IMG/VR virus record: IMGVR_UViG_3300035698_016128 | Span: 32,001-96,000 of that record | Reading direction: 5' to 3' (one strand) | From: a virus | DNA: 64,000 nt | Shown here: positions 17,365 through 63,824 of the stretch, piece after piece | Position numbering within the stretch: the stretch's first letter is position 1 | Layout: every line of letters starts with the position of its first letter | Translations under genes and position numbers: made by a program | Notes under the pieces: generated by a model | What the model was told of the DNA's origin: nothing | Databases searched by the model: none | What the model saw: only the letters and a program-made list of their open reading frames with translations

Positions 17365-20300
17365 TTATGTATCAGATAAATATACAAGAGAGAGCACTCC
17401 ATATATTGCATATAGTGTGGAATTTGATGTGTAGTTCATCACCGCCGGTCTTATGGCAAAAGCATCAGTTGTTGCATCAATATACACTGGAATAGAAACA
17501 GACTCCCAACCAGATCCCTCATGGTTCGTGCATGATCTGCCCCCAAGTTGTGTGCCAGACACATTAATTATGCCAATGCAAATCATATCAGAATCGTCAC
17601 TATTATCATAAGTAAGCGTGAGCGTTCCTCTGTAAATTCCAGCCGTGGTGATTGTAAATACATCGCCGGTCTCAGTAACCCCATTAGCAGCATCAAGGGT
17701 CCATAAAGGTGGTGAAGAGGTTGTAATATGATACCAAACCTTTGAAGAGCTCAGGGTAATATTATTATTTGCACCATTCCCAAACGTTGCAAATGCATGG
17801 CCCTTCTCTGTAACCAATACTTGCCCTGTAATTTCGAGTTCGTCGTTCGTGTCATCCCATATTAAACCGGCATCCCCGCCAAAAGCAGACCCACCATTGT
17901 TGTACTGAATCTGTCCGTCAGTGCCCGCCACTCCGCCAGCGTTATCATCTACGTAACCCTGAGTTACAAACTTATCGTTATCTGCAACTCCAGCAGTAAC
18001 AGAAGCGATTCCATTAAGAAGCCCAAGTTCAGTAGTTGAAATTGTAGCAGACTCGATAATAGCACCAGCACTGGAGACCATCACAAGGTCATTGCCTAAT
18101 GCAGCGCTGGAGTTAGTTCCCCCTTCAGCAATAGCAATATCTGTACCGTTCCATGTTGAAGAAGTGATAGTGCCGAGTACGGCAGATCCGGCAGCAAGCG
18201 CACCCACAATAGTAAGGGCGTCGGTTGCCTTAACGTATGTTAATCCAGCATCACCACCGAAGGAACCAGAATCATTAAACTGTACCTGAGTATCCGCCCC
18301 GCCAGGAGAAGTGGAGCCGCCAGCACTATCGTCCACATATCCCTGGGTTACGAACTTATCGTTATCACCCGCCCCTGTTGAAACAGAAGCAATTCCATTG
18401 AGCAAGCCAAGCTCGGTGGTTGAAATCGTAGCAGACTCAATAATGGCACCAGCACTGGAAATCATCACAAGATCGTTTGCTAATGCTGCGCCCGAATTCG
18501 TACCGCCATCTGCAATAGGTACATCTGTTCCATCTGCACGATAAATGTATTTTGCTCCTATGGTTACTGCCGTAGGAAGATCGGTTCCAAATGCTGGAAC
18601 ACCAGCTCCTGTGGTGGCAAGAATCGAAGAGTTTCCGGTAGCCAGCCCTGCCACTACGTTGGCCCCATTGCTGTAAAGCAACTCAGAAGCACCGTAGGTA
18701 TCAGCAAAGGTTGCGGTAGACCAAGACATGGTACCATCCGCATCAGATTGAAGAACTTGGTTTGCAGTGCCGTTTGCGAGGCTAGTGCCTGTCCCACCAT
18801 CAAGTAGGGGAATGTCTGTTCCGTCTGCACGATAGAGATATTTTGTTCCGATAGTTACTGCTGTAGGGATGTCCGTTCCAATTGCAGGAATTCCGCCTGC
18901 GCCTGTCACTAGAACTCCACTGTTAGCTGTAGCAAGCCCACCTACAATGTTCGCCGTACCTGACCAAAGAATTTCATTTACCGTTGTTGTGGCAGGATAG
19001 GTGGCTGTTGACCACGCCGGAGCTGTGCTTGATCCAGACTGAAGCATTTGCAGGGCTGTTGCGGTAGCCGCAAGCACTTCCATTGAATCAGCATCAGTAT
19101 ATACGATTCCACCGTCACTTGCGGTTAAGTTTTTTGCCGACCCACCGTAGGTAAGACCAACCACATCCCCAGTCCAGGTTGAGGAAGTGACAGTACCGAG
19201 TACAGCGGACCCCGCAGAGAGTGCGCCGACTAAAGTAAGAGCATCGGTCGCCTTGACATATGTTAATCCAGCATCTCCGCCAAAGGACCCACCATCATTA
19301 AACTGCACTTGGGTATCCGCCCCACCGGGAGAAGTAGAACCAGCATTATCATCTACATACCCTTGAGTTACAAACTTGTCATTATCACCTGCCCCGGTAG
19401 AAACAGAAGCTATACCGTTGAGTAGGCCAAGCTCGGTTGTTGAAATTGTAGCGGATTCAATAACGGCACCGGCACTGGAAACCATTACAAGGTCGTTTGC
19501 CAATGCTGCACTCGAATTCGTTCCACCATCTGCAACAGGTACATCTGTACCATCTGCACGATAAAGATATTTAGTTCCTATGGTCACGGCTGTCGGAATA
19601 TCTGTTTCAATAGAAGGAATGTTCCCGGCTGAGGTAACAAGTACACCTGATGCACCAGCAGCGATACCGCCTACAACATTAGCAGACGAACCGAACAGGA
19701 TCTCATTCACACCAACAGCCGTAGGGTATGTAGCCGTTGACCATGTAGGAGCAGTGCTTGAACCTGACCTAAGTATTTGCCCTGCCGTTGCAGTTGCGGC
19801 GAGTACTTCCAATGAATCAGCATCCGAATATATTATTCCACCATCACTTGCGGTCAAGCCCTTATTCGTTCCACCATCAGCCAGCGGTACATCTGTTCCA
19901 CCCGCACGGTAAATATAACCGGCCCCAATGGTCACTGCCGTAGGAAGGTCCGTTCCCAATGAGGGAACACCGCTTCCATCCGTTGCCAGAATCGAAGAAT
20001 TTCCAGTAGCCAGTCCCGCTACTATATTGGCACCGTTACTGTAGAGAAGTTCACTTGCGCCGTAAGTATCAGCAAAGGTAGAAGTGGACCAAGACATGGT
20101 ACCATCTGCATCGGACTGAAGAACTTGATTTGCAGTACCATTTGCAAGAGATGTTCCCGTACCACCATCTAACATTGGAATATCTGTCCCCCCTGTACGG
20201 TAAATATAACCAGTTCCGATGGTTACCCCCGTGGGGATGTCGGTCGCTATTGAGGGAACTCCCGCAGCACTCGTTATCAGAATCCCACTGTTAGCCGTAG

Positions 20301-23300
20301 TAAGGCCAGCCACAATGTTCGCCGTACCTGACCAAAGAATTTCATTTACCGTAGTGGTGGCAGGATACGTTGCGGTAGACCATGCAGGTGCGGTACTTGA
20401 CCCCGACCGTAATATTTGTCCCGCTGTTGCGGTCGCCGCCAATACCTCCATTGAATCAGCATCAGTATATACGATTCCACCGTCACTTGCAGTCAAATTC
20501 TTTGCTGATCCGCCGTAGGTAAGACCAACTACATCCCCAGTCCATGTCGAGGAAGTGACAGTACCGAGTACAGCAGAGCCAGCAGAAAACGCACCGACTA
20601 AAGTAAGGGCATCGGTAGCCTTGACGTATGTTAATCCGGCATCTCCACCGAAGGATCCACCATCATTAAACTGAACTTGAGTATCGGCACCACCAGGAGG
20701 TGTAGCCGTAACGCTATCATCTACGTAACCCTGAGTTACAAACTTATCGTTATCTGCTACTCCTGCGGTAACAGAGGCGATTCCATTAAGGAGTCCAAGT
20801 TCAGTCGTTGTGATTGTAGCAGACTCGATAATAGCACCGGCACTAGAAATCATTGCAAAATCATTTGTTAATGCAGCGCTTGAGTTTGTACCACCATCAG
20901 CCACAGGAACATCCGTTCCGCCTGCTCGGTATAGGTACGCCGCGCCAATGGTGACCGCCGTAGGAAGGTCAGTTCCCCACGCTGGAACACCAGCTCCTGT
21001 GGTAGCAAGAATCGAAGAGTTTCCGGTAGTAAGGCCAGCCACTACGTTCGCACCATTGCTATAGAGAAGTTCGCTCGCCCCGTAGGTATCAGCAAAGGTT
21101 GCGGTAGACCAGGACGCAGTGCCATCAGCATCAGAGTTGAGAACCTGATTTGCTGTACCGTTTGCAAGAGATGTTCCCGTACCGCCGTCCAACAACGGAA
21201 TGTCAGTGCCGTCTGTACGATAGATGTATTTGGCTCCTATGGTAACTGCTGTAGGGATGTCCGTTGCTATGGAAGGCACTCCGGCGGCACTCGTTATTAA
21301 AACCCCACTGTTAGCTGTAGCAAGACCAGCCACGATGTTTGCTGTACTAGACCATAAGATTTGATTCACCGTAGTGGTAGCCGGGTAAGTGGCTGTTGAC
21401 CATGCAGGTGCGGTACTTGTGCCAGACTGAAGCATTTGCAGGGCTGTTGCTGTTCCTGCCAGCACCTCCATTGAATCAGCATCAGTATATACGATTCCAC
21501 CGTCACTTGCGGTTAAGTTTTTTGCCGACCCACCGTAGGTAAGACCAACCACATCCCCAGTCCAGGTTGAGGAAGTGACAGTGCCAAGAACAGCGCCCGT
21601 AGAAGTAAATGGACCTGCGATGGTAAGGGCATCGGTTGCCTTGATGAAGGTCATCCCGGCATCACCAGCAAAAGACCCGGCATCGTTGAACTGTACCTGA
21701 GTGGTCGCACCACCAGGAGGCGTAGCCGTAGCGCTATCATCAACGTATCCCTGGGTTACAAGCGCCGCGTTGTCTCCGGCACCCGTGGAAACAGAGGTCA
21801 TGCCGTTAAGAAGCCCAAGTTCAGTCGTTGAAATTGTAGCAGACTCGATAATAGCACCGGCACTAGAAACCATAACAAGGGAGTTCGACAGGGCCGCACT
21901 GGAGTTTGTCCCACCATCTGCGACAGGTACATCGGTTCCGCTGGCACGATAAAGATACGCAGAGCCAATGGTCACCGCAGTCGGAAGATCGGTTCCCCAG
22001 GCCGGAATACCAGCCCCCGTGGTTGCCAGAATTGAGGAGTTCCCGGTAGTCAGCCCTGCTACTGCGTTGGCCCCATTGCTGTAAAGCAACTCACTTGCCC
22101 CGTAGGTATCGGCAAAAGTTGATGTAGACCAAGAGGGAGCCGCGCTCGTTCCTGACCTAAGCATTTGACCAGCGGTTGCTGTACCTGCCAGCACTTCCAT
22201 GGAATCAGCATCAGTATATACGATTCCGCCATCACTTGCAGTTAAGCTCTTGGCTGTACCGCCCTTTGTCAAAGCCAAGGGGTCTACAAGACCGATAGTG
22301 ATTGTGCCATCCCCATCATCGGCAATATCAATCTCAGAAGCAGTACCCGTTACCCAAGAGTTAAGATCAGTAGAAGTTACATCGCTCGAACCATTCGAAG
22401 CCATTAACCTAGAGGCTGTAAGCACAGAAAGAGTAAGAACATCAGTAGCTTTATCGTACACCATACCAGCATCGCCACCGAAGATTCCACCATCATTAAA
22501 CTGTACCTGCGTATCAGCCCCGCCAGGAGAAGTAGGGCCAACATTATCATCTACATATCCTTGAGTTACAAATTTATCGTTATCAGCCGCCCCAGTTGTA
22601 ACAGAAGCTATACCGTTGAGTAAGCCAAGTTCAGTCGTTGTGATTGTAGCGGATTCAACAATTGCCCCGCCACTAGAAATCATTGCAAAATTATTGTTTA
22701 ACGCCGTGCTTGAATTAGTACCGCCATCAGCAACGGGAATGTCTGTGCCGCCTGCGCGGTAGAGGTACGCCGTGCCTATAGTGACTGCCGTGGGAAGATC
22801 AGTACCCCATGAGGGGACTCCACTTCCGTTCGTCGCCAGAATCGAAGAGTTACCTGTAGCCAACCCCTCCACAGTATTCGCGGTATTGCTATAAAGCAAT
22901 TCACTTGCACCGTAGGTATCAGCATGGGTCGCCGTGCTCCATGCTCCTGCTACCGCACCGTCAGAGCGCCACATTTCCCCTGCGGAACCTGCGGAAGATA
23001 TGAAATATTGACTTACATCAGTTCCAGCGAGCAGAAGTGCGCCAACAGAAATATTGAAATTCTGTGGGGAAACAAGGTTGCCGGTACCAGTAGCAATCAC
23101 ACCATCCGTCTTATTATGGGTAAATGACAACCACTGATCGGTAGCAACATCGTCCGCGGTGGCCGAGTGCAGGAATATAGTAGTATCTGGCGACAACGTA
23201 TCGTGCCCATACTTCTCATCGTACGCTTGCCCATCAACGAAGATAATATTCCTATTTCCCTTTCCATCTGAATAGCCTGGATAAATATAGGCTCCCTCAT

Positions 23301-23679
23301 CCTCAACCACCTTTATCGAAAGATAATTATAGTTCCCATCCCAAAGACGGAAAAGGGTTCGTTGGTAAAACCCCCCATTGCTCCATTGGGCGTTCGACGT
23401 CCCATCAATATAAAGTTCTGTTCCATATGTTCCAGCGGCGAAGAGTATTACTCCGCTACTATTGTATAAAGTATCGGGATATGCCCAAGATACCGTACCT
23501 GCTCCATTTGTTTCCAGAGTTTGGTTAGCGCTCCCATGTGTTCCGTCTATATAGAGATCGCCCTCAAGATAAGTATCGCCCTTAATGATATGCTTATCAT
23601 CATAGTCTGTACCGGCGTAGGCAATGCCCGTTATCAGCAAAGCAATCATTACGATTACTAATTTTGTATTGAGCCTCAT
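17365..23679 (-). CDS. Giant repetitive fibre/adhesin-like protein (2104 aa)
   Basis: Gly/Ala/Thr/Ser-rich mosaic of modules, including six TELGLLNG...VTQGYVDD and six GGxxxQ(V/I)Q(F/Y)N...GDAG units. Signal-peptide-like N-terminus MRLNTKLVIVMIALLITGIAYA. Confidence 0.8.
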   Translation of the reverse strand: MRLNTKLVIVMIALLITGIAYAGTDYDDKHIIKGDTYLEGDLYIDGTHGSANQTLETNGAGTVSWAYPDTLYNSSGVILFAAGTYGTELYIDGTSNAQWSNGGFYQRTLFRLWDGNYNYLSIKVVEDEGAYIYPGYSDGKGNRNIIFVDGQAYDEKYGHDTLSPDTTIFLHSATADDVATDQWLSFTHNKTDGVIATGTGNLVSPQNFNISVGALLLAGTDVSQYFISSAGSAGEMWRSDGAVAGAWSTATHADTYGASELLYSNTANTVEGLATGNSSILATNGSGVPSWGTDLPTAVTIGTAYLYRAGGTDIPVADGGTNSSTALNNNFAMISSGGAIVESATITTTELGLLNGIASVTTGAADNDKFVTQGYVDDNVGPTSPGGADTQVQFNDGGIFGGDAGMVYDKATDVLTLSVLTASRLMASNGSSDVTSTDLNSWVTGTASEIDIADDGDGTITIGLVDPLALTKGGTAKSLTASDGGIVYTDADSMEVLAGTATAGQMLRSGTSAAPSWSTSTFADTYGASELLYSNGANAVAGLTTGNSSILATTGAGIPAWGTDLPTAVTIGSAYLYRASGTDVPVADGGTNSSAALSNSLVMVSSAGAIIESATISTTELGLLNGMTSVSTGAGDNAALVTQGYVDDSATATPPGGATTQVQFNDAGSFAGDAGMTFIKATDALTIAGPFTSTGAVLGTVTSSTWTGDVVGLTYGGSAKNLTASDGGIVYTDADSMEVLAGTATALQMLQSGTSTAPAWSTATYPATTTVNQILWSSTANIVAGLATANSGVLITSAAGVPSIATDIPTAVTIGAKYIYRTDGTDIPLLDGGTGTSLANGTANQVLNSDADGTASWSTATFADTYGASELLYSNGANVVAGLTTGNSSILATTGAGVPAWGTDLPTAVTIGAAYLYRAGGTDVPVADGGTNSSAALTNDFAMISSAGAIIESATITTTELGLLNGIASVTAGVADNDKFVTQGYVDDSVTATPPGGADTQVQFNDGGSFGGDAGLTYVKATDALTLVGAFSAGSAVLGTVTSSTWTGDVVGLTYGGSAKNLTASDGGIVYTDADSMEVLAATATAGQILRSGSSTAPAWSTATYPATTTVNEILWSGTANIVAGLTTANSGILITSAAGVPSIATDIPTGVTIGTGYIYRTGGTDIPMLDGGTGTSLANGTANQVLQSDADGTMSWSTSTFADTYGASELLYSNGANIVAGLATGNSSILATDGSGVPSLGTDLPTAVTIGAGYIYRAGGTDVPLADGGTNKGLTASDGGIIYSDADSLEVLAATATAGQILRSGSSTAPTWSTATYPTAVGVNEILFGSSANVVGGIAAGASGVLVTSAGNIPSIETDIPTAVTIGTKYLYRADGTDVPVADGGTNSSAALANDLVMVSSAGAVIESATISTTELGLLNGIASVSTGAGDNDKFVTQGYVDDNAGSTSPGGADTQVQFNDGGSFGGDAGLTYVKATDALTLVGALSAGSAVLGTVTSSTWTGDVVGLTYGGSAKNLTASDGGIVYTDADSMEVLAATATALQMLQSGSSTAPAWSTATYPATTTVNEILWSGTANIVGGLATANSGVLVTGAGGIPAIGTDIPTAVTIGTKYLYRADGTDIPLLDGGTGTSLANGTANQVLQSDADGTMSWSTATFADTYGASELLYSNGANVVAGLATGNSSILATTGAGVPAFGTDLPTAVTIGAKYIYRADGTDVPIADGGTNSGAALANDLVMISSAGAIIESATISTTELGLLNGIASVSTGAGDNDKFVTQGYVDDSAGGSTSPGGADTQVQFNDSGSFGGDAGLTYVKATDALTIVGALAAGSAVLGTITSSTWNGTDIAIAEGGTNSSAALGNDLVMVSSAGAIIESATISTTELGLLNGIASVTAGVADNDKFVTQGYVDDNAGGVAGTDGQIQYNNGGSAFGGDAGLIWDDTNDELEITGQVLVTEKGHAFATFGNGANNNITLSSSKVWYHITTSSPPLWTLDAANGVTETGDVFTITTAGIYRGTLTLTYDNSDDSDMICIGIINVSGTQLGGRSCTNHEGSGWESVSIPVYIDATTDAFAIRPAVMNYTSNSTLYAIYGVLSLVYLSDT

Positions 23680-24274: not shown

Positions 24275-26377
24275 TTACTCCTTCGCTTTCTTCGCTGGCT
24301 TTCTGCCAGTCTTCTTTGATGCGTCCAGCATACTGCGTAGCTTCTTGCCTTCCGGTTCAGAAAGCTTCTTTGTGATAGCCTCATTTAGAATTTCCAAATG
24401 AAAGTCCATCATGTACCGAAGGGCTCGGACGATTTCTTCCGGCCCCATGAGTTCGAAGTTGGGGATGTACTCAAGACCACTTGACCAGATCTTTAACCGC
24501 ATCAGGCCAGCCTTAACCGCCATAAGCCCATCAGGACTCTCAGTAGCTATGCGCATAAGCCCCATACGAATATGGTCAACCTCGCGAATCTTTCCATCCT
24601 CATCGGGTTCCGGTCTGTATATATCAAGATATGAAAAGTCTTGCCCCTCTGTTGGGAAAACACCGATATCAGCCTCAGCAAGCTTTGCCTTCAGACTCTC
24701 CGCACGGTCACCGCCGGGGCGCAACACTTTCCGATCAGCCTCACGCGTCCCAGGGAAGCTTTTACGTGTTGCACGCCTAGTGGGGTTCCCCTTCACCGGA
24801 ACACGCTCAGAACCGGGTTTCTGTGCGTCTAAGGGGGGTGTTTGCGCCCCATCACCTTCTTCAGAAGCATTCGGGGGCGCAACTTCCGTCATTACTTCAT
24901 CAAATTGCTGAACCGGCACGTTAAGAACAGTTGCCAACTCCTCAAGCGACGGAATGACATTCGGGCGAAGACCACCCTGAACCATGTTGTCCATGTTGCG
25001 AATCATTTCGATGAAAATTTCCTTCAGGGCAATCTTCCTGTTCCAATCGAGACTGTCGAGCATCAACCTTGCCGGTGCACGCTCTTCAGGCGGGAAGTTC
25101 CCCTGAATCAAAATCGGTAGCAACTGCTCGTCAACCGTTGCCTCAATGTCGTTGACCAGCCCGAGCTCTGACTGTAGAAACAGATCAGCGTGCAGGCTTG
25201 CCATGCTATAACCACCGCCACCGCTTGTCTCATTCGTCACGGCTTTTTCGGGAATCCAAAGAGCGCGAAGGATGCCGACGTCCATGTGGTTAATGGCCTG
25301 AATAAACATTTCCCCGCGCTTGTCATCGGAGAGGTATTCAACCTTCCACATATTCTCCTTGCCGCTTTTTGATTCCTCATACGGCAGAACACCAATGGTG
25401 TTTGAAAGCAGGGACGAGCCAAGGTCCAGAGCCAACTGCATATTGTTTATGCGCTGACCACTTTCTGTCTGGGAATCGCCCGGAGGTGCCGTAGTAAGAA
25501 TGGGCGGAGAGCCACGACGCTCGAAATACATGAGCATGAACTGATACAGGACTTCCTTCCAGTACCAGAACTTATATGCGGCCACGAGTCGGCTATTCCC
25601 AAACGGGTTACCGAACTCTTCATCATGGGTAAAGAAGAAACACTTATCCTTGTTCAGCCGGACTTCCTTACCATAGGCGCTTTGAATGATACCATTGAAG
25701 TTCTCTTTATCGTCAAGCAGTACTTCTATACTGCTAGGGTGATGCGCCTTGAATTTCTTGTAGACAAGAGCCTTTCCGTCGTAGTACACCTTCTTGTCTT
25801 TGGCCTTTGATTTCTTCTCGACCTTTACATCCTCAATCATAAAAACTTTCTCATGAGAAGCAAAGCCGTATTCGACCGCCGTAAGCGTCGACTTGATCAG
25901 CCTGCGCCAAACCTTCCGCAGTGCATTCTCAAGAAAGAACTTGACCTTATCGTCATCACACTCGATACGCCACGGCAGGGCAATGATTGGCAATTTGATA
26001 AATGCCAAACCAGCACTGACCATGGAATCATTCTTCATGAGATCGAATGTGTCAACGGTAATTGTCTCGGGATTGTACACCCCGTGCGACCCCTCGACGT
26101 TTGCTATGGCAGGGTTGTCATAGCGCGAAATCTCCTTCAAATCAATCTTGGCAGGAGACTTCTTCTTCTGGCGCTTGCTACCACTGACCTTTACGTCCCC
26201 GGTCTTGAGGTAAGTTGTAAAATCATCTTGCAACTTACGGTCAAAGAAGGCTTTCGTAAAATCAGCAATCTCCCTCGCACCCTCCCTGTTTAACGGGGTC
26301 TTCCCTGTGGGCGGAGCCAACCGAATGCCGCTCGTTCTTGTTTTCTTTGGTATTCTTTTTTTATCAGCCATTCTCAC
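24275..26377 (-). CDS. Portal protein (DUF935/Mu gp29-like) with C-terminal extension
   Basis: Follows terL. Motifs DSMVSAGLAFIKLPIIALPWRIE, YGFASHEKV, NPFGNSRL...YKFWYWK and FERRGSPP. Confidence 0.85.
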   Translation of the reverse strand: MRMADKKRIPKKTRTSGIRLAPPTGKTPLNREGAREIADFTKAFFDRKLQDDFTTYLKTGDVKVSGSKRQKKKSPAKIDLKEISRYDNPAIANVEGSHGVYNPETITVDTFDLMKNDSMVSAGLAFIKLPIIALPWRIECDDDKVKFFLENALRKVWRRLIKSTLTAVEYGFASHEKVFMIEDVKVEKKSKAKDKKVYYDGKALVYKKFKAHHPSSIEVLLDDKENFNGIIQSAYGKEVRLNKDKCFFFTHDEEFGNPFGNSRLVAAYKFWYWKEVLYQFMLMYFERRGSPPILTTAPPGDSQTESGQRINNMQLALDLGSSLLSNTIGVLPYEESKSGKENMWKVEYLSDDKRGEMFIQAINHMDVGILRALWIPEKAVTNETSGGGGYSMASLHADLFLQSELGLVNDIEATVDEQLLPILIQGNFPPEERAPARLMLDSLDWNRKIALKEIFIEMIRNMDNMVQGGLRPNVIPSLEELATVLNVPVQQFDEVMTEVAPPNASEEGDGAQTPPLDAQKPGSERVPVKGNPTRRATRKSFPGTREADRKVLRPGGDRAESLKAKLAEADIGVFPTEGQDFSYLDIYRPEPDEDGKIREVDHIRMGLMRIATESPDGLMAVKAGLMRLKIWSSGLEYIPNFELMGPEEIVRALRYMMDFHLEILNEAITKKLSEPEGKKLRSMLDASKKTGRKPAKKAKE

Positions 26378-28211
26378 GTCTCGAAGTTGGGTTAGGAAAC
26401 TTTAGCCCAAAGCTAATCATTCGTGAACCGTCAAGTGGCTGAACCATCCCACCACGTGACGGCACGAACAATCTCTTATCAGGGCGGACAATTGAAATTG
26501 GCACCGTACCCCTATCTTCTTGAGTCTCATCACGAAAATTCACTGGGTAACAAGTCCTGGGCTTACTCCTGATATACATGCCCATCATGGCTACTGCCCA
26601 AAAGATGTCTCCGTGATGATCCTTATTTTTTTCAGCATCAACACGTATATTACCGTGGTCTGTCACTGAGCGTTTAATCGAATGAAACTGGTTCTTGAAA
26701 TCACGCTGATCAGGAAATGCCAAACATTGGTTCTCCATCAGCATGCGAACCGTTGATGCGCTTTCGTCCTTCCAAGTGCCGGTAAAATTAACCGCATCGA
26801 CAACACTTGGGTACCTTGAAAACAAATTCTCACAAAGGTGCATGCCCATGCCTGTCTCATCAATGCCAAGCTTTCTCACATTACCTTTGCGTATGGCGTA
26901 ATCTATTTCAGCTTCCATCTCTCTGAAAGGTTCATTCCTGAATGAGCGCCTGAACCGTATTATCGCCATATCATCGTTTATTTCCTCGGCCAGAATAAAC
27001 TCAGCCGTATGATGCCTACGCCCAACATCGAACCCGCCAATCAACCGCCCCTTGATATGCCCAAAGCGTACTGCATCCAACACACCCTCAATATTATCAT
27101 AAAACCGAAATGAAATGCCAGGATACTTTTCCTCAATCGGCAACTTCCTCAAATCAAGTGCATTTTCGTCATCTTCATTGAATATGTCGTCAGTGACATG
27201 ACGATACACGCATTGATTGATGAGACTCATTGGAATGTAGGCAACGCTCTCATCTATGTGGTGGCATTCGTATTCCTGACAGAATGATTCGATGTCCATA
27301 CCAATAAAGATATGGCGAAGCTTCTGACCACCATAAGTCTTCACCCTCTCTATTGTCTTCATTAACGGCGCTTTAACCTGAGCCTCTTCAAACAATCCTT
27401 CGCCAACGAACTCAGGGCAATCCCACCAGAACACTCGGTAGAAGCTGTACAAGCTTCGGAACTCTTCGTTGTTCATCACTTCCCAGTGAATGCCGTTCTT
27501 ACCAAGCGGGGTACTTCCAATTGTAATGCCCCCATGCCCACGGGAGATAATAGGCATAGCGGCTACATAAATTTTATCACCATATGTGTAATGTGCGGCC
27601 TCATCCAAAATGATCTTGGTGTTACCACCCTTACCACGTGGCTCCCGCTGTGCATGCGATATGATGCGGGTTCGTCCACGCCTATGGCCCGTTGTTGATT
27701 CGAATTCAAGGCTCTTTTTATTATCAACGATTAACCGCTTCTGAAACCCAAGTGGCATTGACTCAAAAAGTTCGCGTGCATAGACAATCTTCTCGTTGGC
27801 TTCTTCCTGATTGATAGAAATGAATATTTCAGTGTGCCTGTCCATCAGGTGTGCCTCGGCCACACCCTCTGTGGCAAACACATACGAGAACCCTGTCTGC
27901 CGGGACTTATCAATATGCTTGAATGGGTTTGGGTCAATGAGATAATCAATCTGGTATTGATACAGGGACGTTGGCGCACCGTTGGTCTCGGTAAGCCCCT
28001 CAACGAACCCCGGCTTTGTGGCAAGCCATTTGCCAAGGTCTTCCCTTGTAGGTTCTTTTTTAACAATAATCAAGGGGCTCTTCATAGGAATGCGCTTTAC
28101 CTTTACAGATAGCGCGGCCTTCTTCTTTACTGGCTTGCGCACAGGCTTCTTCTCGGCCTCGTCCATGAACTCACCAAGCGAAACCGTCTTCTTCTTAGTC
28201 GCCACGTACAT
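26364..28211 (-). CDS. terL: Terminase large subunit (Mu gp28-like)
   Basis: ATPase motifs DKSRQTGFS, IILDEAAH and GSTPLG; RNase H-like nuclease motifs GFDVGR, GIDETGMG and HGDIFWA. Confidence 0.93.
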   Translation of the reverse strand: MYVATKKKTVSLGEFMDEAEKKPVRKPVKKKAALSVKVKRIPMKSPLIIVKKEPTREDLGKWLATKPGFVEGLTETNGAPTSLYQYQIDYLIDPNPFKHIDKSRQTGFSYVFATEGVAEAHLMDRHTEIFISINQEEANEKIVYARELFESMPLGFQKRLIVDNKKSLEFESTTGHRRGRTRIISHAQREPRGKGGNTKIILDEAAHYTYGDKIYVAAMPIISRGHGGITIGSTPLGKNGIHWEVMNNEEFRSLYSFYRVFWWDCPEFVGEGLFEEAQVKAPLMKTIERVKTYGGQKLRHIFIGMDIESFCQEYECHHIDESVAYIPMSLINQCVYRHVTDDIFNEDDENALDLRKLPIEEKYPGISFRFYDNIEGVLDAVRFGHIKGRLIGGFDVGRRHHTAEFILAEEINDDMAIIRFRRSFRNEPFREMEAEIDYAIRKGNVRKLGIDETGMGMHLCENLFSRYPSVVDAVNFTGTWKDESASTVRMLMENQCLAFPDQRDFKNQFHSIKRSVTDHGNIRVDAEKNKDHHGDIFWAVAMMGMYIRSKPRTCYPVNFRDETQEDRGTVPISIVRPDKRLFVPSRGGMVQPLDGSRMISFGLKFPNPTSRRENG

Positions 28212-34405: not shown

Positions 34406-34426
34406 CTCCCATTACGTTTTGATTTA

Positions 34427-35400
34427 GTTTATCTATTTGTTGTTTATCTATTTGTTGTTTATCTGATCGCTGTGCTGTTTATGGTTGGTTATTGGGCTTT
34501 CCTTATTATGTACCACTTATGCCCTGAAAAGCCAAGGGGATGGGGAAATAATTCATTTGTTTGATTTTGAGGGGCTGAACAGGCTGGCAGGCTAGAAAGG
34601 GGCTAATGGGGTATATGAGGGCTTTGTGGGTATATATAATGATATGCGTGTGAGTGGGTGTTGAGTAAGTGTTGAATGAGTGGGAATGAGTGTGAGTGAG
34701 TGTGAATTGGTGTGAGTGAGTGTGAGTGGGGGTTGATGCGGGTATGAGGGTGTGCGGGGATTCGTCCCAAGTGACGGTTAAATGGGACAAATAGGTATGA
34801 ACCCGCCATGTTTGCCGAATTGAACTCGCATAGTGTTTATTATTCGTCCGATATGGCTACAGGTGGGGATAAATGGGGTATCTACTCGTATATACGTAAA
34901 AATGGGATGGGGTTTTTTTGGGAGGGGCAGGTTTTGTTTCAATGTGAGACCTTCGAGTGGTCTATAGGAGTTTCGTAGCGGGTTCGAGTGGTTTCGTAGC
35001 GGGTTCGAGTGGGGCAGTACAACAAGTTGTGTTTTGGTAGATCGTATACAACTTATTGTACAGAGTTACAAAACTCGGGGACGTAGGAAAATGGGGACCC
35101 CCGACACGTGGTTACGTTTTTGTAACATATGCGTATATATTTGTAACAAGTTTTCGGCAGTATTCGCACGCGGTTTTCGCATGCAAGAATTGCAATACGA
35201 AATATGTACCCACGTGCGAAAAACGTAATACGAAACCGTACCAGTACGAAAACGTAACAACATGACAGAAACGTAATCACATTACGAAAGCGTAACAACG
35301 TGACGAAAACGTAACAAGGCAGGCAGGGTGACAGCAGGCAGGCAGGGTGACAGCAGGCAGGCAGGGTGACAGCAGGCAGGCAGGGTGACAGCAGGCAGGC
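34427..35400. repeat. Non-coding low-complexity/tandem-repeat region at strand switch
   Basis: 15-bp unit x2.5 (34427-34464), GAGTGT-like run (~34645-34730), 21-bp unit x2 (34970-35011), degenerate ACGAAAACGTAAC run (~35216-35316) and 19-bp AGGCAGGCAGGGTGACAGC x4.4 (35317-35400). Confidence 0.9.
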
Positions 35401-35567
35401 AAAAAAACCCAAGTGACGAAAAACGGCGTTTCGGTGACGTATTACGTCACTTTCTTGCCTATTTTCAGGGTGCCATATTGACAGAAAAAAAGCTTGAAAA
35501 AAAACTTTCGCCTACAAGTTATTGTATTCATTACATAAAAAAAAACTTTGTACAATTTCTTGTATGT

Positions 35568-35583
35568 TGGCACACGGCATGCA
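35568..35583 (+). promoter_or_regulatory. sigma54-type -24/-12 promoter
   Basis: TGGCACACGGCATGCA: GG-N10-GC spacing; upstream of the island operon. Confidence 0.65.
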
Positions 35584-35798
35584 ATGCATAGGGTTGATTC
35601 GAACACAGCGTCACGCCAGCCCCAACTAAGTAAATGGCGAAACACAAGGCACCCGAAAGTCAAGGGTGAAAGGCAAGAAGAAAGCCTGCCGAAATAGGAA
35701 ACCGCCCTTAAGGGTGCCACTTAAAATGCGTTTCCAAAAAATTCTAGTTTTTGGCTTTGCAAGCCGTTTCCGTTTTCCTTCAGAAAGGTAGGTGCCAT

Positions 35799-36254
35799 AT
35801 GGCGAAAGCCAAAAAGCGCTTCCTGTCAATGAAGGAAATGATGTATTTTCATTTCCTTGCTATTGCAACGGCAGGGGAAAGCACCCTGAAAGCTGGGGCG
35901 CTTCTGAAGGCCTATCACGGGGGGAAAGAAACTTCCCGTGAGGTTGGCAATGTGACCGGCGAATTGTTCGCACCTGCTATCATGCTTCGGCACCTTGAAA
36001 GCTTCGGCACAGTTTCAAGCGCAGAAGCGAATGACGGCACAATCATTCGCCTGTTTGACGGCTTCGGCAAAGAAAGCTTCCGGGTTTTCTTTTCCAAGCG
36101 GGGAAAATGGGCGGGCCGCTATGGTGTTTCTGGCGCAGTGAAAAGCGCTATGGAAAACGCCCTGCCTGATTGTTCCTTTGACTGGGAACAGCAGGGCACA
36201 AAAAATTACTTCTTCTCAGGGAACAATGAAGCGCTTCTGCGCTTCGCACCCTGA
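35799..36254 (+). CDS. Hypothetical protein, paralog of 38053-38559
   Basis: AAGGTAGG RBS before ATG 35799; shares the AYHGGK, NDGT, SKRGKW and KNY(F/Y)FSGN motifs with its paralog. Confidence 0.85.
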   Translation: MAKAKKRFLSMKEMMYFHFLAIATAGESTLKAGALLKAYHGGKETSREVGNVTGELFAPAIMLRHLESFGTVSSAEANDGTIIRLFDGFGKESFRVFFSKRGKWAGRYGVSGAVKSAMENALPDCSFDWEQQGTKNYFFSGNNEALLRFAP

Positions 36255-36323
36255 CAGGCAGTAATCAACCGGGAAACGGAAACGGCTTGCAAAACCCAAA
36301 ACTAGAACAAGAAAGGGGAAACC

Positions 36324-37461
36324 ATGGAAATTTTTCTTTTTGGCTGTTTTTGGTTTAGCCTGTTTTGCAGTTTCGTCATTCTTTGCATCATGCTCAGCAA
36401 CAAGTGGTAGTAGGGGGAAACCATGTTAGAAAGCTTGCACCTTCAGTTTTTCACATTGTTCGTTGATGCTGAAGCGCTTCTGTTTTGGAAAAGGGCGTTT
36501 CAGGCTTCGGAAAGCATAACCGGGGAAAACTGGTTTGTTTTCTGAGAAAACCGGGGGGAAGGAAACTTCCCCCCCTACAATTTCTTGTAAAGGGGAAACC
36601 ATGATTTTAGGCTTCTACTTGATTGCCAACAGGCCGGTTTTCTTGATGCTCACAAACGTGGGGGAAGTTGATCAACTGTTCCAGAAAACAATATGGCTTC
36701 AGTTTGTTTGAAGCCGTCAACCGGGGGGAAGGAAACTTCCCCCCCCAGAAAGGGGAAAAAATGGAATACGAACACCCAAAAATGAGGAACAAGTTTTTTA
36801 AGTTTCTTGGTGACAGCGTGCTTGAACCACTTTTCTACAAGCTTGGCTTGTGGTACGGCTGTGATGACTGTGATGACTGCGTGAACCACTGGGTTTACAA
36901 GGTTTCCGGTTGCAAGGTGTGCACGCAAAGGAAGTGTGGCAAAATTCTTGACGCAGTGATTTGGAAGTAGGTCAACCGGGGGGAAGGAAACTTCCCCCCA
37001 AGCTTTTACAACTTCTTGCAGAAAGGAAACTGATATGACACTTGGCAAGGCAAAAAAGCCGAACGGGAAAATGTGTGCAAGGGTAGTTTCGAACGGCTTG
37101 GGTGTTGAAATAGAAGTTGGCTTGCAGAAGGCAGAAAGTGACACACTCATGGCAGTTGGCACCATTCGCCCCAAGTACAAGAATGAAGAAGCGGGCGCGT
37201 TTTTCATGACCATGCTGAAAGAATACGCTGAGGCGCACGGCATTGAATTTGATGTACAGCAATGGGAAGAATAGTCAACCGTCAACCGGGGGGAAGGAAA
37301 CTTCCCCCCAGAAAGGGGAAAGTATGAGAAAGCCTTTCAGCGCAGTACACATTTGTAACAGGTGCAAGCGCAAAGTAGTAATCATCAAACGGCACAAAGC
37401 GCTTCCGCTTCCTTACTGCTACATGTGTGGCAAGTGTTTCAAGAAGGAATACGGCACGTGA
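36324..37461 (+). other. Micro-gene array: 36324-36410 (28 aa, hydrophobic), 36423-36545 (40 aa), 36601-36711 (36 aa), 36761-36970 (69 aa, Cys-rich), 37035-37274 (79 aa), 37324-37461 (45 aa, CxxC...CxxC)
   Basis: Each is preceded by a purine-rich RBS (mostly AGGGGAAA; AAAGGAAA at 37035) and all are co-oriented; translated manually. Confidence 0.7.
36549..37309 (+). repeat. Four copies of an intergenic hairpin (GTC)AACC-GGGGGGAAG-GAAA-CTTCCCCCC
   Basis: Copies at 36549-36574, 36716-36744, 36971-36999 and 37281-37309; perfect 9-bp stem with a GAAA loop. Confidence 0.95.
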
Positions 37462-37551
37462 ACGGCTTTGAAGGGGGAAGGCGGGTGCAAGCCTGCTTTC
37501 CCCTTTTAACACGCTCAAACAGGCGCACAGGCGCACGCACGTGGAAGGAAC

Positions 37552-37594
37552 GGGGAAGGGGAAGCCAAGCGCTTTCCTTTCCCCCCTTTTTTTT
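37552..37594 (+). terminator. Rho-independent terminator closing the island operon
   Basis: GGGGAAGGGGAAGC...GCTTTCCTTTCCCC stem followed by T8. Confidence 0.8.
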
Positions 37595-38052
37595 GTGCCA
37601 AGCAGGGCGTGCGTGACCGCCATACGACCCCGATATCTGTTTAAGCGCCGGTGGATCCTTTGATTTGTGGATCACTACGTGACGACCCCTCGTAGGTTAA
37701 GCGCTGGTGGATCCTTTGAAGTACCAAAGCACTCTCAATCAATCGCTGAGGAATAGACCTATACCTGTGCCTATACGTAGACGTGGAAGAACCGGAAGGG
37801 TCGGGAAATATAAGCGAGTAGGAGGCGAGCGAGTTGATCGTACTCCCCACAGAGTCGAACCCCTTCGCCTACCCGATATCCCTGGAACCCTATCGGTTAC
37901 GAAAAGAGTTACTAACCCCCGAGCAGGGAGAAGACCTCCACCCCTCCCCGGTCCACGAGCGGTGGATCCTTTGGCCTTTCCAAAAGGAACCCCCTATCCA
38001 ACCATAAGCCGGAGTAGGGGGTTCGTACTACACGATATTCGGTACTACCGGA

Positions 38053-38559
38053 CTACGCGCCTAAGTAGCGCATGAGAGCTGCGGTATTCCCGGAGAAGTA
38101 GTAGTTCTTACTTTCGGACTGACGTACCCAACCGAACTCATCGTTGGTATTGACCGCTTCAATCTGCGTGCGTGCCTTACCCGACACACCGAACTGCCCC
38201 GACCATTTGCCCCTTTTCGACAGGAAGAACCGGAATGCTTCGGACCCGCAGTTATCAAAGACGCGAACCACCGTACCATCGTTGCATTCCGCTTCCGTGA
38301 ACCTGAGATCAGCAGCGCTCATGACCGACGCCACAATGGCGCTTCCGAGGAGTTTGCCAGTAGGACCGTCAACTGCCCTTTCGGTATCCTTCCCACCGTG
38401 GTACGCGGAGTTGAACATTCTGGCGGTCACATCCTCCGGGGTCATTTCCGGGATGACCGGCGCTTCGGGTTCAACGATGGGTTCCACCGGGGCGATGATG
38501 ACTTCTTCCGCCTTCGGGGATACTGCCTTCTTCCGCCTGATCGTTTTCTTGGTTCCCAT
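38053..38559 (-). CDS. Hypothetical protein, paralog of 35799-36254
   Basis: GGAG RBS before ATG 38559 (MGTKKTIRRKK...); aligned by eye with 35799-36254. Confidence 0.85.
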   Translation of the reverse strand: MGTKKTIRRKKAVSPKAEEVIIAPVEPIVEPEAPVIPEMTPEDVTARMFNSAYHGGKDTERAVDGPTGKLLGSAIVASVMSAADLRFTEAECNDGTVVRVFDNCGSEAFRFFLSKRGKWSGQFGVSGKARTQIEAVNTNDEFGWVRQSESKNYYFSGNTAALMRYLGA

Positions 38560-38622
38560 TTTGAATCTCCTTTCAGAAGGGTTTTGAGTCCCACCACACC
38601 ACGTGGTGGTACCCGTATATAC

Positions 38623-38638
38623 TGCAAGTCGCGTGCCT
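38623..38638 (-). promoter_or_regulatory. sigma54-type promoter
   Basis: AGGCACGCGACTTGCA, ~65 nt upstream of ATG 38559. Confidence 0.7.
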
Positions 38639-39026
38639 AACAAGGGCATCGGAAATAAAAAAAAAAGGTGGTCGTTTCAGGTACTTACAACTCCGCCCAA
38701 AACCGTCGTTCAACGAGTGGGTAAAATAGTGCCGTTTTTGGGCTCTTTGGTGACAATTTGCGCCGGAGTACCAAGAGTTACGATATCGTACTCGTATAGT
38801 TACAAGAGTGTAACTGGTTACATTATCGTACTCGGCAGTTACAGGAGCGTAACAGGATATCCCAGTTACAAAAACGTAACTAGAGTTACATAATCGTAAC
38901 AGGATGTCCCCCGAGGCAGGTTGCTCCTGGTGGATCCTTTGGATATCGGGACGACGAAGATATCCCCAAGGTGGGAATATAGCTGTGGATCAGTTAAGAT
39001 CTACCGACTCACACAATCATCTTATC

Positions 39027-40737: not shown

Positions 40738-43700
40738 CTACTTAGGCAGATACGCCTTACAGTCGTTGTGCTTATTACGATCAAGGAAGGTTCTTGTCTG
40801 TATCCATACCCTTTCCTCCCTGACCGGGGTGCGTACCAGCTCCCAGTAACCGCAGTGCTTATCGAGCACACACTCCTGATGTAACCCCCTGAAGAGGGTT
40901 CTGAACCTACTACACTCTGAACAAAAGACCTTATCAGGCATAGTGTATCCCCTTCTACTAGCGTTAATACATCTCCCCCTATATGGCTACTTCCAACACC
41001 GACGGAAAAGGAAGGGATGGGATATTATTATATATATAGTATATAGAGGGACGAGTAGAGTTTAGAGTTTAGAGTTTACATATCGAATGGGAAAGGCGAC
41101 CCCTTACCCTTACTCTTACTCTCCATCTTCGGGGTAGCCTTCTTCCTTCTCGCCTTCTTCGCCAGCGGCCTCGGGGGGGTAGTAGCGATATATTCCTTCT
41201 TCTTCGGCTTCGGGGGCGGAGTAACGATATATGCTAGCTCTACCGCTACGTCCTCGAGAGTAAGAAGAATCTCTATATCGCTCTCGCTGATAAGGAAGAT
41301 ATTACCGTCGAGCGTTCTTATAATAACCTCCCGCTCGGTACCGCCAAGAAGAAACGGCGTTTCGACTTCGAACATCTGGTTCGTATATTCCTCGGGGAAG
41401 TAATTCGGTAACCCTCCCATAAGGCTCCACTTGATAGTCGTAACTCGGGGAAGGTTAAACCCCGCGTCGTTACGTATACATCCCTTTAACATACCGTAGG
41501 TCTTACGAGCGTTATGCAAATCCATAACTTCTCCTCTTTCTGTGAAAGGTGTACCGAATCTATCGTCCTTACTTAACTCCGCGATAAGGTTCTTTCTTTC
41601 TCTACCTCGGAAGACCGGGTTAGTATCGCCCTCCTTTAATTGATTTATGAACCTAGAGCTTGCCCCTCTCACACCGCACCTCCTTCCAGCGGCATCTCGG
41701 TAAGACTCGCCAGTACCCGTTCCTTGGCGTTCGGGAACTCCATGGCGTAAGCCGGATTGGTAGTACCCAGTTCATAGATCGAGCCTGAGAAGGTGACGAC
41801 CATACCATCACGCTTACCGATGATCTTGGAAGAGCGTACTTCAAGACCGTTAAGGTTAGCACGTGGGTGATCAACGGGGACACCGAGAAGATGTGAGGAA
41901 ATGAGTTCGGGGGCCATATACGGACTCGTCTGCCCGACTATGATTGCCCAGTTGTTGATCGTAATCGGTTTAACTTTATCTGCCATTACGCACCTCCTTC
42001 TAGACTTTGACCAGCCCGAGCCGACCCGGCTCAACCATTGTCATCTTGTTGAGTTCAGCCATTGCCTCTTCCAAAGAAGTAAAGACACGAGCCGCCTCAA
42101 TATGTTCGACCCAGCGACGAATACCGTCACGAGTCTCAAAGTACCACAGGGTACCGACCGGCGATGACATACTAATGTGATGCTCCACCTCACACCTCCT
42201 TAGAAAGGACAATCGCCCTTACAGGGCTGATCATCACAGTCCTTGTCTTCGTTCTCGTAATCGTACGGTTCAAGCCCACAACCTTCGCGAGCCCGATTAC
42301 ATTCAGCCATTGCCTCTGTTTCCTGACCAGCGATGAATGTCTCCCACCGCATACCTCCCATACTGCACCTCCCTTCTTACGAGCGGTTATCGGAACGACT
42401 CAAGTTACGGCTTGCGTAAAGGTTATCCATAAGCTGATCGCAAACATCCATCGGCGCGGACTTGTACAATTCGGAAACCCGCTGGCTGAGGATGCTTGTG
42501 TACTCCGCATCTATACCGTGATGCTTGATGCAGACACAGCCACGCTTGACGATAATGTAGTGCTGGCGCTCGCTGACCTTCCACTCTGCCTTGCACACGA
42601 AACAAACGACAGGTTTACCCATCTTTAATCTCCTTCTTGGCCTTGTACCACTCGTTGTATTCCTCCCGTTGAGGACACCAGCGCATGTGGGGGTTGCTTT
42701 CAGGTCGCCCGTTCATAGTCCAAGCATACCCTCCGCAAGTACAGTAATGCTTAAAGCTCTTTAATGCCTCCGCCTCTGCCCTTGTCACCCTAGTCATCCT
42801 CCACTGTGCTGACCTTGATCTGGTTAACAGCCTTCATGTTGGTCTGAAGGTTCTTGATCACATCCCTATGGTGCTCGAAGACCAGATTCTTGGCGGCTCC
42901 AAGAGTCTTCTGTGCGTTGTGATACTCCGGGTTACCTTCCTTAACCCTGAAGATCCAACTACATGAGCCATCAACGAGGGCGAGATACCTTGCTACTGCC
43001 ATCACTTCACCTCCTTGGCCAATCGCAGAAGAGCAGTTTAACATAGGAGGACATGATGTACACCGACTCAGGTATCCACGTTACACCATCAGCGCAGAGT
43101 ACAAGAAAGTATGGTGCGACGTACAATCCCTTGACGATCACGCCCCCATTGTCCTCATAGTAATGAGTTGGAGTCAACATTCCCTTCTCCTTATCTTACT
43201 TCTTGTGCGGTTGCAAGACTGTACTCACTGAAGTAGAGGATGAAGCACCCATGTTTGGTGTTCATATCTTCCAGGATGTCATCCGTAACTTCCGTCTGTC
43301 CAACGTTGAAGTCATAACAGCAGGAGTTCAGCCACCAATCGTAGAATGTAAGCCAGAACATAATTGCCTCCGTCTAAAGTAGTTTTCCACAAAGAGCCAT
43401 TAACCGCTGAGCAATATCGAGATGTTCGGCTTGCTGTGCCTCTGTGAACGGAGTGCCATTGATTTCAGCCAACCGAATAATCTCACTGGCGGAACCAAGA
43501 AATGATTTCTCCCAAAAGGCCATTTCTTCTTTGATCGGTACAGGCTCGTCTGCCTGTTTGACCATAGCCCTGATCGCATCTTTAGTAGGCATGGTATAGA
43601 ATGGAGCACCCAAGTTGATACACTCCCCATCGCTGTTCTCAACATCATAGTAGTCGATGATACCTTCAGGTGTCTCCGAGTCCCAACACCCATAGACGTA

Positions 43701-63182: not shown

Positions 63183-63824
63183 ATGAAAAAGTATGAAGAC
63201 TTCATTGCCTTAGCAACACCGATAATAAGACAAGAGGCAAGGCGGTTCAGCAAACGAATTCAAAGTCATGATGTTGAAGATCTTGAGCAAGAAATAAAGT
63301 TTAAGATTTGGCGAAGTTTTGACACCATTGATTTGGATAAATATCCCCCAAAGGCTGTTGCGAGAAATATCGCTGTGCAGACGTGCTTGCGAATATACGG
63401 ACGTAAGCCGAAGGAAATTGGCAGTATCAAATTGGAAGAGAACTTTTGGGGGACAAGTGGTTTTGCCAGCATCGAAGTAAGACACTTATCAGATAAACCA
63501 CATGCGGATGCCGTCATACGGGAAGAGGACTTTACCTGCACGGCAGGTACAGCGGAAGTCGAAGTCTGTGACCTACTGGCTACGCTGTCACCACAACTAA
63601 GCGATGTAGCGCATACCGTTCTACGCATCCGGCTTGATCCCCCGCAGGGTTTGATTTCAAAGGCATGCCGTGGTATGCTTGAAACTAAGAAGACCAGCAG
63701 GGACAGGTCTACCTTTCGCATAACAAATAAAATGTTCAGCGACTACCTTGGCCTAACAAGGTACCGCTATGCTGTTGCTCTTGAAGAGATAAGAGAAAAG
63801 CTTGGGGCGCTAGGAGAATTGTGA
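63183..63824 (+). CDS. Sigma70 region-2-like protein (phage sigma factor/regulator)
   Basis: PIIRQEARRF...DVEDLEQEIKFKIWRSF resembles ECF sigma region 2. Confidence 0.6.
   Translation: MKKYEDFIALATPIIRQEARRFSKRIQSHDVEDLEQEIKFKIWRSFDTIDLDKYPPKAVARNIAVQTCLRIYGRKPKEIGSIKLEENFWGTSGFASIEVRHLSDKPHADAVIREEDFTCTAGTAEVEVCDLLATLSPQLSDVAHTVLRIRLDPPQGLISKACRGMLETKKTSRDRSTFRITNKMFSDYLGLTRYRYAVALEEIREKLGALGEL

Follow-up and report, generated by a model that had tools for sequence, protein, structure and literature searches.

What keeps 2.5 kb of a phage genome free of a degenerate four-letter word that is common elsewhere in the same genome? The question is raised by the IMG/VR contig IMGVR_UViG_3300035698_016128, a 124,119-bp sequence, estimated to be 75% complete, of an uncultured phage from a salt lake; the window analysed here comprises its bases 32001-96000 (64,000 nucleotides), and all the sequence evidence consists of assembled contigs. 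The word is VGAB, that is [not T]-G-A-[not A] (V = not T, B = not A), with its complement VTCB, 18 tetranucleotides in total. A preliminary description, based on the letters alone, had proposed that the word-free island is a 'stealth' segment purged of a broad class of host-defence motifs. The idea of a selection acting at the level of the DNA has been retained. The 'broad class' has not, since one exact word is avoided and both TGAB and VGAA are spared, and a host defence is no more likely to read this word than a context-specific hypermodification belonging to the phage itself. The element is defined as follows:

35103..37627, no strand: island free of VGAB/VTCB, with a flanking CGAC site on either side (35102 and 37625)

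The rule noticed by the preliminary description is real, and the two bounding sites that it named were confirmed. By direct count, the gap between the flanking sites measures 2523 nt and holds no site on either strand, while the full contig contains 6646 of them (0.0535 per base) and its second-longest gap is 225 nt. On the basis of the word frequencies of the remaining genome, about 138 sites would be expected in the island, both strands considered. Closely similar words persist in it: TGAB is approximately normal (63 against 72 expected), VGAA is enriched (141 against 84 expected), and 144 GA dinucleotides are left on the sense strand, in the form of GAA or TGA. The only additional tetranucleotides missing from the island are CCTC, GAGC and GAGT, because GAG is rare there.

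The constraint imposed on the coding sequence was quantified by synonymous recoding of the seven open reading frames (ORFs) of the island (1365 coding nt) with the codon usage of the genome. This procedure gave 63.9±6.8 sites, with a minimum of 42 in 2000 trials; the sense-strand expectation was 35.8±5.2 for VGAB and 28.6±4.8 for VTCB, and neither occurs. The 1154 non-coding nucleotides of the island, mostly located upstream of the promoter, are likewise devoid of sites. The whole-genome count and the codon-recoded controls called for by the preliminary description thus both place the island far below expectation, and the rule extends, as claimed there, over one promoter-to-terminator unit, in its coding parts as well as in its non-coding ones. 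The proteins themselves are affected, Asp and Ile being halved and Phe, Cys, Met, Trp and Lys raised. The translation signals are affected as well: six of the seven ribosome-binding sites are AAAGGGGAAA (GGGGAAA type), whereas 47% of the other long genes use GGAG, GAGG or AGGA, all forbidden under the rule of the island. The depletion is a by-product of neither protein sequence nor composition, and the ban takes precedence over codon choice, over amino-acid composition and over the Shine-Dalgarno sequence itself.

The island is real and is not an assembly artefact. Four salt-lake runs, dating from 2017-2018, carry the island stretch at 100% identity, and the right edge is bridged by the Logan contigs X1 (37280-38121) and X3 (37280-37758). 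The left edge is spanned by the IMG/VR contig alone, in addition to a 151-nt contig overlapping this edge by 13 nt. The chimera envisaged by the preliminary description can be dismissed. No variants, joints or molecule ends were found in the Logan contigs that cover the island, and the sequencing runs listed as carrying it include no RNA dataset.

The preliminary description had also suggested a search for similar islands near the termini of related phages, and the same ban was found in at least six other contigs. In what follows, G000 is the contig under study, with L004 and L006 as stretches of it; G001 to G004 are its relatives by the large terminase (TerL), L029 is part of G002, and L044 to L061 are contigs with homologues of the first gene of the island (gene 1). 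The islands detected are:

L044/45/61: island of 1253 nt
L047/59: island of about 2.3 kb, with a few tolerated sites
L048: island of at least 576 nt, reaching the contig end
L049/50: island of 1387 nt
L051: island made up of the entire 1382 nt
L052/53: island of about 1305 nt
L029:2453-3363 (G002 82453-83363): island nearly free of all GA/TC

All the contigs with the island type of gene 1 are VGAB-free around this gene. Where the type found outside the island is present and the contig extends far enough, an adjoining VGAB-free island exists in three cases out of three. Each of the three islands for which counts were tabulated (L044, L047 and L048) contains both TGAB and VGAA, and the rule is therefore identical. 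The flank with GATATC/GTGGATC, rich in the banned word, also recurs in L047 and L049. The related phages that carry the ban have a G+C content of 40-48% and come from several samples, and their gene 1-family proteins diverge by 0.6-2.3 substitutions per site, so the island DNA has been turned over many times under the ban. In at least six other phage contigs, all of them highly diverged, the syntenic operon is under the same ban, which is an inherited trait of a lineage of salt-lake phages.

The same constraint can be followed over a shorter time. Close variants of four islands differ by 50 substitutions, of which one created a site while about 20% (some 10) would be expected to do so (binomial P ~2e-4). 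This deficit implies that selection continues. The VGAB ban is maintained on both strands by purifying selection. More distantly, the 140-kb complete contig G002, with a TerL of 37% identity, contains a 911-nt island with 5 GA/TC dinucleotides against about 110 expected. Two products are encoded there, a 25-aa membrane peptide and a basic 204-aa protein almost without Asp and Glu, and an HD-domain gene comes next. G001 displays a partial depletion only, one of its long gaps being a trivial TGATTTCAC tandem repeat, and G003 and G004 are too incomplete to serve as negatives.

Within G000, the island is predicted to form a self-contained operon, which runs from enhancer-like repeats and a promoter of the sigma54 type through seven small genes to a terminator. 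Starting from 35106, spaced CGAAAACGTAAC-type repeats are followed by a 19-nt tandem array, two TACAAnTTnTTGTA boxes and the promoter element. The features of the operon and of its right flank are, in order:

35201..35316, plus strand: CGAAAACGTAAC-type repeats with 19-nt spacing, iteron- or operator-like (repeat families D4 and D7)
35317..35411, plus strand: tandem 19-nt repeat AGGCAGGCAGGGTGACAGC, 4-5 copies, candidate enhancer (upstream activating sequence, UAS) for a sigma54-type promoter
35513..35564, plus strand: two TACAAnTTnTTGTA inverted-repeat boxes directly upstream of the promoter (family D6)
35568..35583, plus strand: sigma54-type -24/-12 element TGGCACACGGCATGCA, by pattern match
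35799..36254, plus strand: gene 1, 151 aa, island copy of a small phage-only family
36324..36410, plus strand: 28-aa hydrophobic micro-ORF, ribosome-binding site GGGGAAACC
36423..36545, plus strand: 40-aa ORF, conserved in L047 and L049
36601..36711, plus strand: 36-aa ORF
36761..36970, plus strand: 69-aa Cys-rich ORF
37035..37274, plus strand: 79-aa ORF, conserved in L047 (1340-1549)
37324..37461, plus strand: 45-aa ORF with two CxxC pairs, zinc-ribbon-like
36553-36574, 36723-36744, 36978-36999 and 37288-37309, plus strand: four copies of the intercistronic hairpin GGGGGGAAG-GAAA-CTTCCCCCC (family D2)
37464..37594, plus strand: two strong hairpins at the end of the unit; a T run follows the second (37552-37584), the predicted operon terminator
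37629..37973, plus strand: right flank beyond the island edge, where the banned word is frequent, with three GGTGGATCCTTTG repeats and GATATC boxes (family D5)

The promoter element matches the pattern TGGCAC-N5-ATGCA at 35568, with GG at -24 and GC at -12 in the exact spacing, upstream of the first gene. A sigma54-type element heads all the related islands checked but one: none was found in the L048 island, which is truncated by the end of the contig. L047 possesses a comparable CAGGG repeat array as well as a conserved TACAAnTTnTTGTA box, of which G000 has extra copies at 35047, 36576 and 37007. The seven ORFs, all on the plus strand, encode 151, 28, 40, 36, 69, 79 and 45 aa in this order. 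Each intercistronic hairpin, with a 9-bp stem, a GAAA loop and a stability of about -20 kcal/mol, precedes a ribosome-binding site AGAAAGGGGAAA, and these units separate the later ORFs. An Rfam search of the island returned sub-threshold chance matches only.

Repeats also surround the operon. Arrays of GGTGGATC(C)TTT and GATATC boxes are conserved downstream of it (window 37629-37973, L047:2500-2600 and L049:2600-2900), and they are candidates for a protein-binding, packaging (pac) or boundary element. To the left of the island, a divergent control region (34420-34760 and 34970-35011) holds three copies of GTTTATCTATTTGTT, a GTGAGTG-type 10-nt array and two copies of GTTTCGTAGCGGGTTCGAGTG. A repeat related to these left-side arrays, TTTCGTAAC, is found downstream of the island in L047.

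The nature of the banned word gives some insight into what reads it. A site is exempt when either strand carries a T at its 5' flank, a condition that is symmetric about the centre of the site. Given this dyad symmetry and the equal purging of the two strands, the most likely reader of the word is one factor that acts on double-stranded DNA and has a footprint of 4 bp. Such an exemption would be expected if a thymine substituent in the major groove blocks access. A cause at the level of the messenger RNA (mRNA), for instance a CmdT-like GA-specific ADP-ribosyltransferase, is excluded as the sole explanation, since the sense strand lacks the word and its complement alike and the non-coding DNA complies as well. 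A union of many restriction sites was also considered and rejected, TGAB and VGAA being untouched while all 18 words are absent; a mixture of such sites is unlikely, and one degenerate 4-bp specificity fits.

The reading preferred here, in a tentative manner, is that the word is read by a hypermodification system of the phage lineage itself: VTCB would be the context in which thymidine is hypermodified in a lineage of the 5-hydroxymethyl-2'-deoxyuridine (5-hmdU) type, and the operon would stay unmodified. A candidate for such a pathway is a 396-aa homologue of thymidylate synthase (TS) that is present in G000, G001 and G002. Its best solved relative is the hydroxymethylase MilA. At the position that determines base specificity it carries Asn, as in the uracil type, whereas the cytosine-specific enzymes have Asp. 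Its nearest cultured relatives belong to phages of the SPO1, ViI and M6 types, which are 5-hmdU phages. This protein is thus predicted to be a uracil-type deoxyuridine monophosphate hydroxymethylase. It lies in the replication module, together with several potential tailoring enzymes:

L006:2666-3145: GmhA-like phosphoheptose isomerase
L006:5813-7561: GT9 (heptosyltransferase-family) glycosyltransferase
L006:9843-10832: S-adenosylmethionine (SAM) methyltransferase
L006:11431-12753: GT1-like glycosyltransferase
L006:15495-16685: TS homologue

These neighbours hint at a sugar adduct, possibly of the heptose type, on hydroxymethyl-pyrimidine DNA. A second group of enzymes is found on the strand of the structural genes, where an 11-kb cluster (L004:5882-17352) encodes three radical-SAM enzymes, one of them B12-binding, in addition to GT1 and GT2 glycosyltransferases and FkbM-type methyltransferases; the target of this late operon may be a virion protein or DNA.

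The proposed mechanism would run as follows. The TS homologue, the glycosyltransferases, the methyltransferases and the sugar isomerase would supply the modified base, and the VTCB contexts would receive a bulky adduct after replication. The operon would then constitute an adduct-free cassette within an otherwise modified genome, which the unaltered host machinery could bind and transcribe at the start of infection and to which host nucleases or glycosylases that depend on modification would be blind. The second copy of gene 1, just beyond the island, might serve later, once the modified DNA is usable. An inherited phage enzyme is favoured over a strain-variable host restriction-modification (R-M) system because the identical degenerate rule is found at 40-48% G+C and in several samples. 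Published precedents exist: 5-hmdU is further converted in particular sequence contexts in M6, ViI, PhiW-14 and SP10 (PMC8989533), the phage T-dioxygenase 5mYOX97 prefers NTC (PMC13229309), and the DpdA of phage iggy targets GA (PMC10484667).

The palindromes of G000 bear on the same question. Classical restriction-site avoidance is visible over the whole contig (GGCGCC 1 against 28 expected, GCCGGC 0 against 19, GGGCCC 0 against 15) and extends to ACCGGT (5 against 31 expected) and TGGCCA (3 against 25), with an observed/expected ratio of 0.66 for GATC; the avoided palindromes are of the G+C-only or G+C-core type. Among the palindromic 6-mers, 2 of the 32 that contain GA/TC are strongly avoided genome-wide, compared with 26 of the 96 that do not (Fisher p=0.009). 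The weaker avoidance of GA/TC palindromes fits a protection of T-bearing sites.

Several observations count against a hypermodification of this kind. G+C content confounds the palindrome signal, which is moreover not peculiar to VGAB, as GAATTC, TTCGAA and TGATCA are not avoided either. The modification is a prediction from genes and a motif in assembled contigs. No match to DpdA or tRNA-guanine transglycosylase (TGT; PF01702) was obtained in G000-G004, while 14 of 14 control genomes matched, and Tet_JBP (PF12851) gave none in these contigs, although the controls matched weakly and the phage 5mYOX enzymes are divergent; no enzyme could be linked to VGAB. No 5-hmdU DNA kinase was recognised in G000, with the contig 75% complete. 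The context-modifying phages CAjan, M6 and the ViI-like allotria have no dinucleotide-free island, so that islands are no general consequence of such pathways. Finally, a 59-aa ORF of L047 (979-1158, equivalent to L059:945-1124) has 7 VGAB/VTCB sites inside an otherwise clean island. This ORF is either a recent insertion or a sign that the ban is dose-dependent rather than absolute; the ban is strong, yet not absolute.

The main rival, considered somewhat less likely, makes the idea of the preliminary description specific: a nuclease, nickase, glycosylase or DNA-modifying toxin of the host or of a competitor would recognise VGAB on incoming DNA. The island would then be the site-free DNA that is exposed or expressed first, and its products would neutralise the threat or switch on the remaining programme. 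The strict locality of the ban, which stops at the terminator of an autonomous unit, is in agreement with this scenario, for which the first-step-transfer DNA of T5, without EcoRI sites, offers a precedent. The island adjoins the start of the packaging and structural module (TerL 26364-28211), where genome ends often lie, and the conserved flanking repeat arrays might function as a pac site or as a signal that stops injection. Even the copy of gene 1 outside the island fits a product needed before the rest of the genome is safe. An enzyme cutting every ~19 bp would nevertheless require a matching self-protection of the host, and to our knowledge no self-protection system with VGAB specificity is known. 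Host R-M systems vary between strains, yet the same degenerate word is avoided in at least seven diverged phages. Furthermore, the island is mid-contig both in G000 and in the complete G002, whose 'direct terminal repeat' may merely reflect a circular assembly; the banned word is unusually frequent in the flank directly beside the island; and none of the island proteins resembles a known anti-restriction protein.

An escape from a GA reader acting on single-stranded nucleic acid, such as an ADP-ribosyltransferase similar to CmdT (on mRNA) or to DarT (on single-stranded DNA), seems improbable. CmdT modifies the adenine of GA in single-stranded RNA and weakly in single-stranded DNA, and GA occurs in Shine-Dalgarno sequences (PMC11618068), which would agree with the replacement of GGAG by GGGGAAA in the island. 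An mRNA reader leaves the absence of VTCB from the sense strand unexplained, though, as it does the GA dinucleotides kept as GAA or TGA, and the 1.15 kb of compliant non-coding DNA, lying mostly upstream of the promoter, is probably untranscribed.

A mutational origin is more improbable still, whether by a repeated enzymatic hypermutation at the motif (for instance by a TC-specific deaminase) or by the recent import of a cassette from a word-free donor genome. The island does differ in composition from the neighbouring DNA, with a 1.4-fold excess of AA and TT and one of more than 2-fold for TTT/AAA, as would result from C-to-T changes at TC. Such a process would also predict the replacement of Asp by Asn, and Asn is not enriched in the island proteins. 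The edges match the functional unit in every phage examined, the proteins are intact and conserved, close variants are short of site-creating changes in place, and no donor with a genome-wide VGAB ban was found among the relatives. As for an assembly chimera or a synthetic or contaminant DNA, the BamHI and EcoRV sites located just past the right edge could suggest a cloning artefact, a prospect made negligible by the independent salt-lake runs, by the bridged right edge and by the homologous islands with the same flanking repeats in unrelated samples.

What the operon produces was investigated at the protein level. No island protein has a match in Pfam or PHROG, and the neighbouring genes gave nothing informative either; the same searches, with structure comparisons, disclosed no resemblance to a known anti-restriction protein. 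The family of gene 1 has only ten representatives among 1.8 billion cluster representatives. A confident structure model was obtained (predicted local distance difference test, pLDDT, 84), in which residues 54-151 match YgaC (Z 6.6) and the C-terminal domain (CTD) of T4 MotA (Z 5.8 and 5.5), all below the reliable level of the tool. The other comparisons are also below the reliable level: Foldseek ranked the MotA CTD 50th (TMt 0.49), and the YjbR cluster gave template-modelling (TM) scores of 0.40/0.60 with the model. No match at E<=0.001 was found with Foldseek against the PDB, and the ESM Atlas returned no usable feature match. A 'double-wing' DNA-binding regulator resembling the MotA CTD, YjbR and YgaC may be considered as a lead, not a finding, for gene 1. 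Its paralog is located as follows:

38053..38559, minus strand: gene 1 paralog outside the island, 38% identity, 1.8 kb away

The 597-nt ORF containing this paralog (38053-38649) has 29 VGAB/VTCB sites. A tree of the island and non-island copies was unresolved, and an ancient single duplication is neither supported nor ruled out by it. No match to the nucleotide sequence of the island was obtained in 50,697 phage records; gene 1 and its paralog, each used as a single query against viral contigs, found nothing, nor did an alignment scan, and in a homologous-protein search the query itself was the sole match.

The operon belongs to a large tailed phage whose portal is Mu-like and whose large terminase is of the T4 type; a tail tube protein is encoded as well, and DnaB, a primase, Pol III alpha and a ribonucleotide reductase are among the replication genes. 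A 213-aa protein (window 63183-63824), with a weak, sub-threshold match to sigma-70 region 2, is a candidate phage sigma factor for the late genes. A protein of 2104 aa without Pfam match (window 17365-23679, minus strand) adjoins the portal gene. Two other local biases in composition were noted. A 198-aa gene without family match (window 41076-41672, minus strand) is depleted 3.5-fold in CA/TG (24 against 83 expected), with GA/TC above average, and 423 nt without TA (L006:8766-9189, G000 104766-105189), for an expected maximum gap of about 159 nt, lie inside an unannotated 376-aa gene.

It is very rare for a DNA modification of a phage, or for the specificity of a defence, to be deducible from the sequence alone; the island is a clean natural footprint. 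It gives the exact word, its reading on the duplex and the seven small genes that escape the reader, and it points to candidate enzymes (the TS homologue, the GT9, the GT1-like protein and the methyltransferases) and to candidate immediate-early regulators. Such islands may offer a general route to the modification and defence systems still unknown in metagenomes. It is conceivable, if somewhat doubtful, that phages of several unrelated lineages each keep one autonomous operon free of a 2-4-bp word (VGAB here, GA/TC in G002), every ban mirroring an undescribed and frequent DNA-marking or DNA-cutting activity. If so, the islands would be a sequence-only read-out of unknown hypermodification or host-defence specificities, and an 'unmarked' expression cassette in a marked genome would represent a new regulatory principle.

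The avoidance of palindromes over whole genomes is classical in phages. It shares with the island a selection against short words, and G000 exhibits both (GGCGCC 1 against 28), but palindrome avoidance is genome-wide and statistical, whereas the ban of the island is local and absolute and concerns a degenerate word that is not palindromic. The pre-early or first-step-transfer DNA of T5, without EcoRI sites, is contained in the terminal repeat and enters the cell first. Like it, the island is a short self-contained block of small genes of unknown fold, bounded by repeat arrays and locally deprived of a word common elsewhere in the genome. The differences are that T5 lacks a single 6-bp site, while 18 tetranucleotides are missing here over 2.5 kb, with proteins and ribosome-binding sites reshaped, and that the T5 block is terminal and first-entering, while the salt-lake island lies mid-contig.

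With the 5-hmdU phages, the phage of the island has in common a uracil-type hydroxymethylase homologue of the TS fold and tailoring enzymes, and the precedents include NTC, the core of the banned word; unlike what is known of these phages, neither a 5-hmdU DNA kinase nor TET/JBP was found here, and M6 and the ViI-like allotria have no motif-free island. The DpdA systems of CAjan and iggy (PMC10484667) mark nearly every GA by means of a phage enzyme, and the dinucleotide core is the same, but G000-G004 contain no TGT/DpdA or preQ0 genes and CAjan has no GA-free region. CmdTAC (PMC11618068) is a known defence against phages, and its GA specificity would affect Shine-Dalgarno sequences; CmdT acts on single-stranded RNA, whereas the ban of the island applies equally to the complement and to non-coding DNA, and leaves GAA and TGA in place. 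No published description was found of an absolute ban of this kind, by which a degenerate tetranucleotide is excluded from a single operon throughout a lineage, so strongly that proteins and ribosome-binding sites are rewritten. The island can be regarded as a variant of motif avoidance, and the chance is substantial that behind it stands a class of DNA-marking or DNA-cutting activity not yet described.

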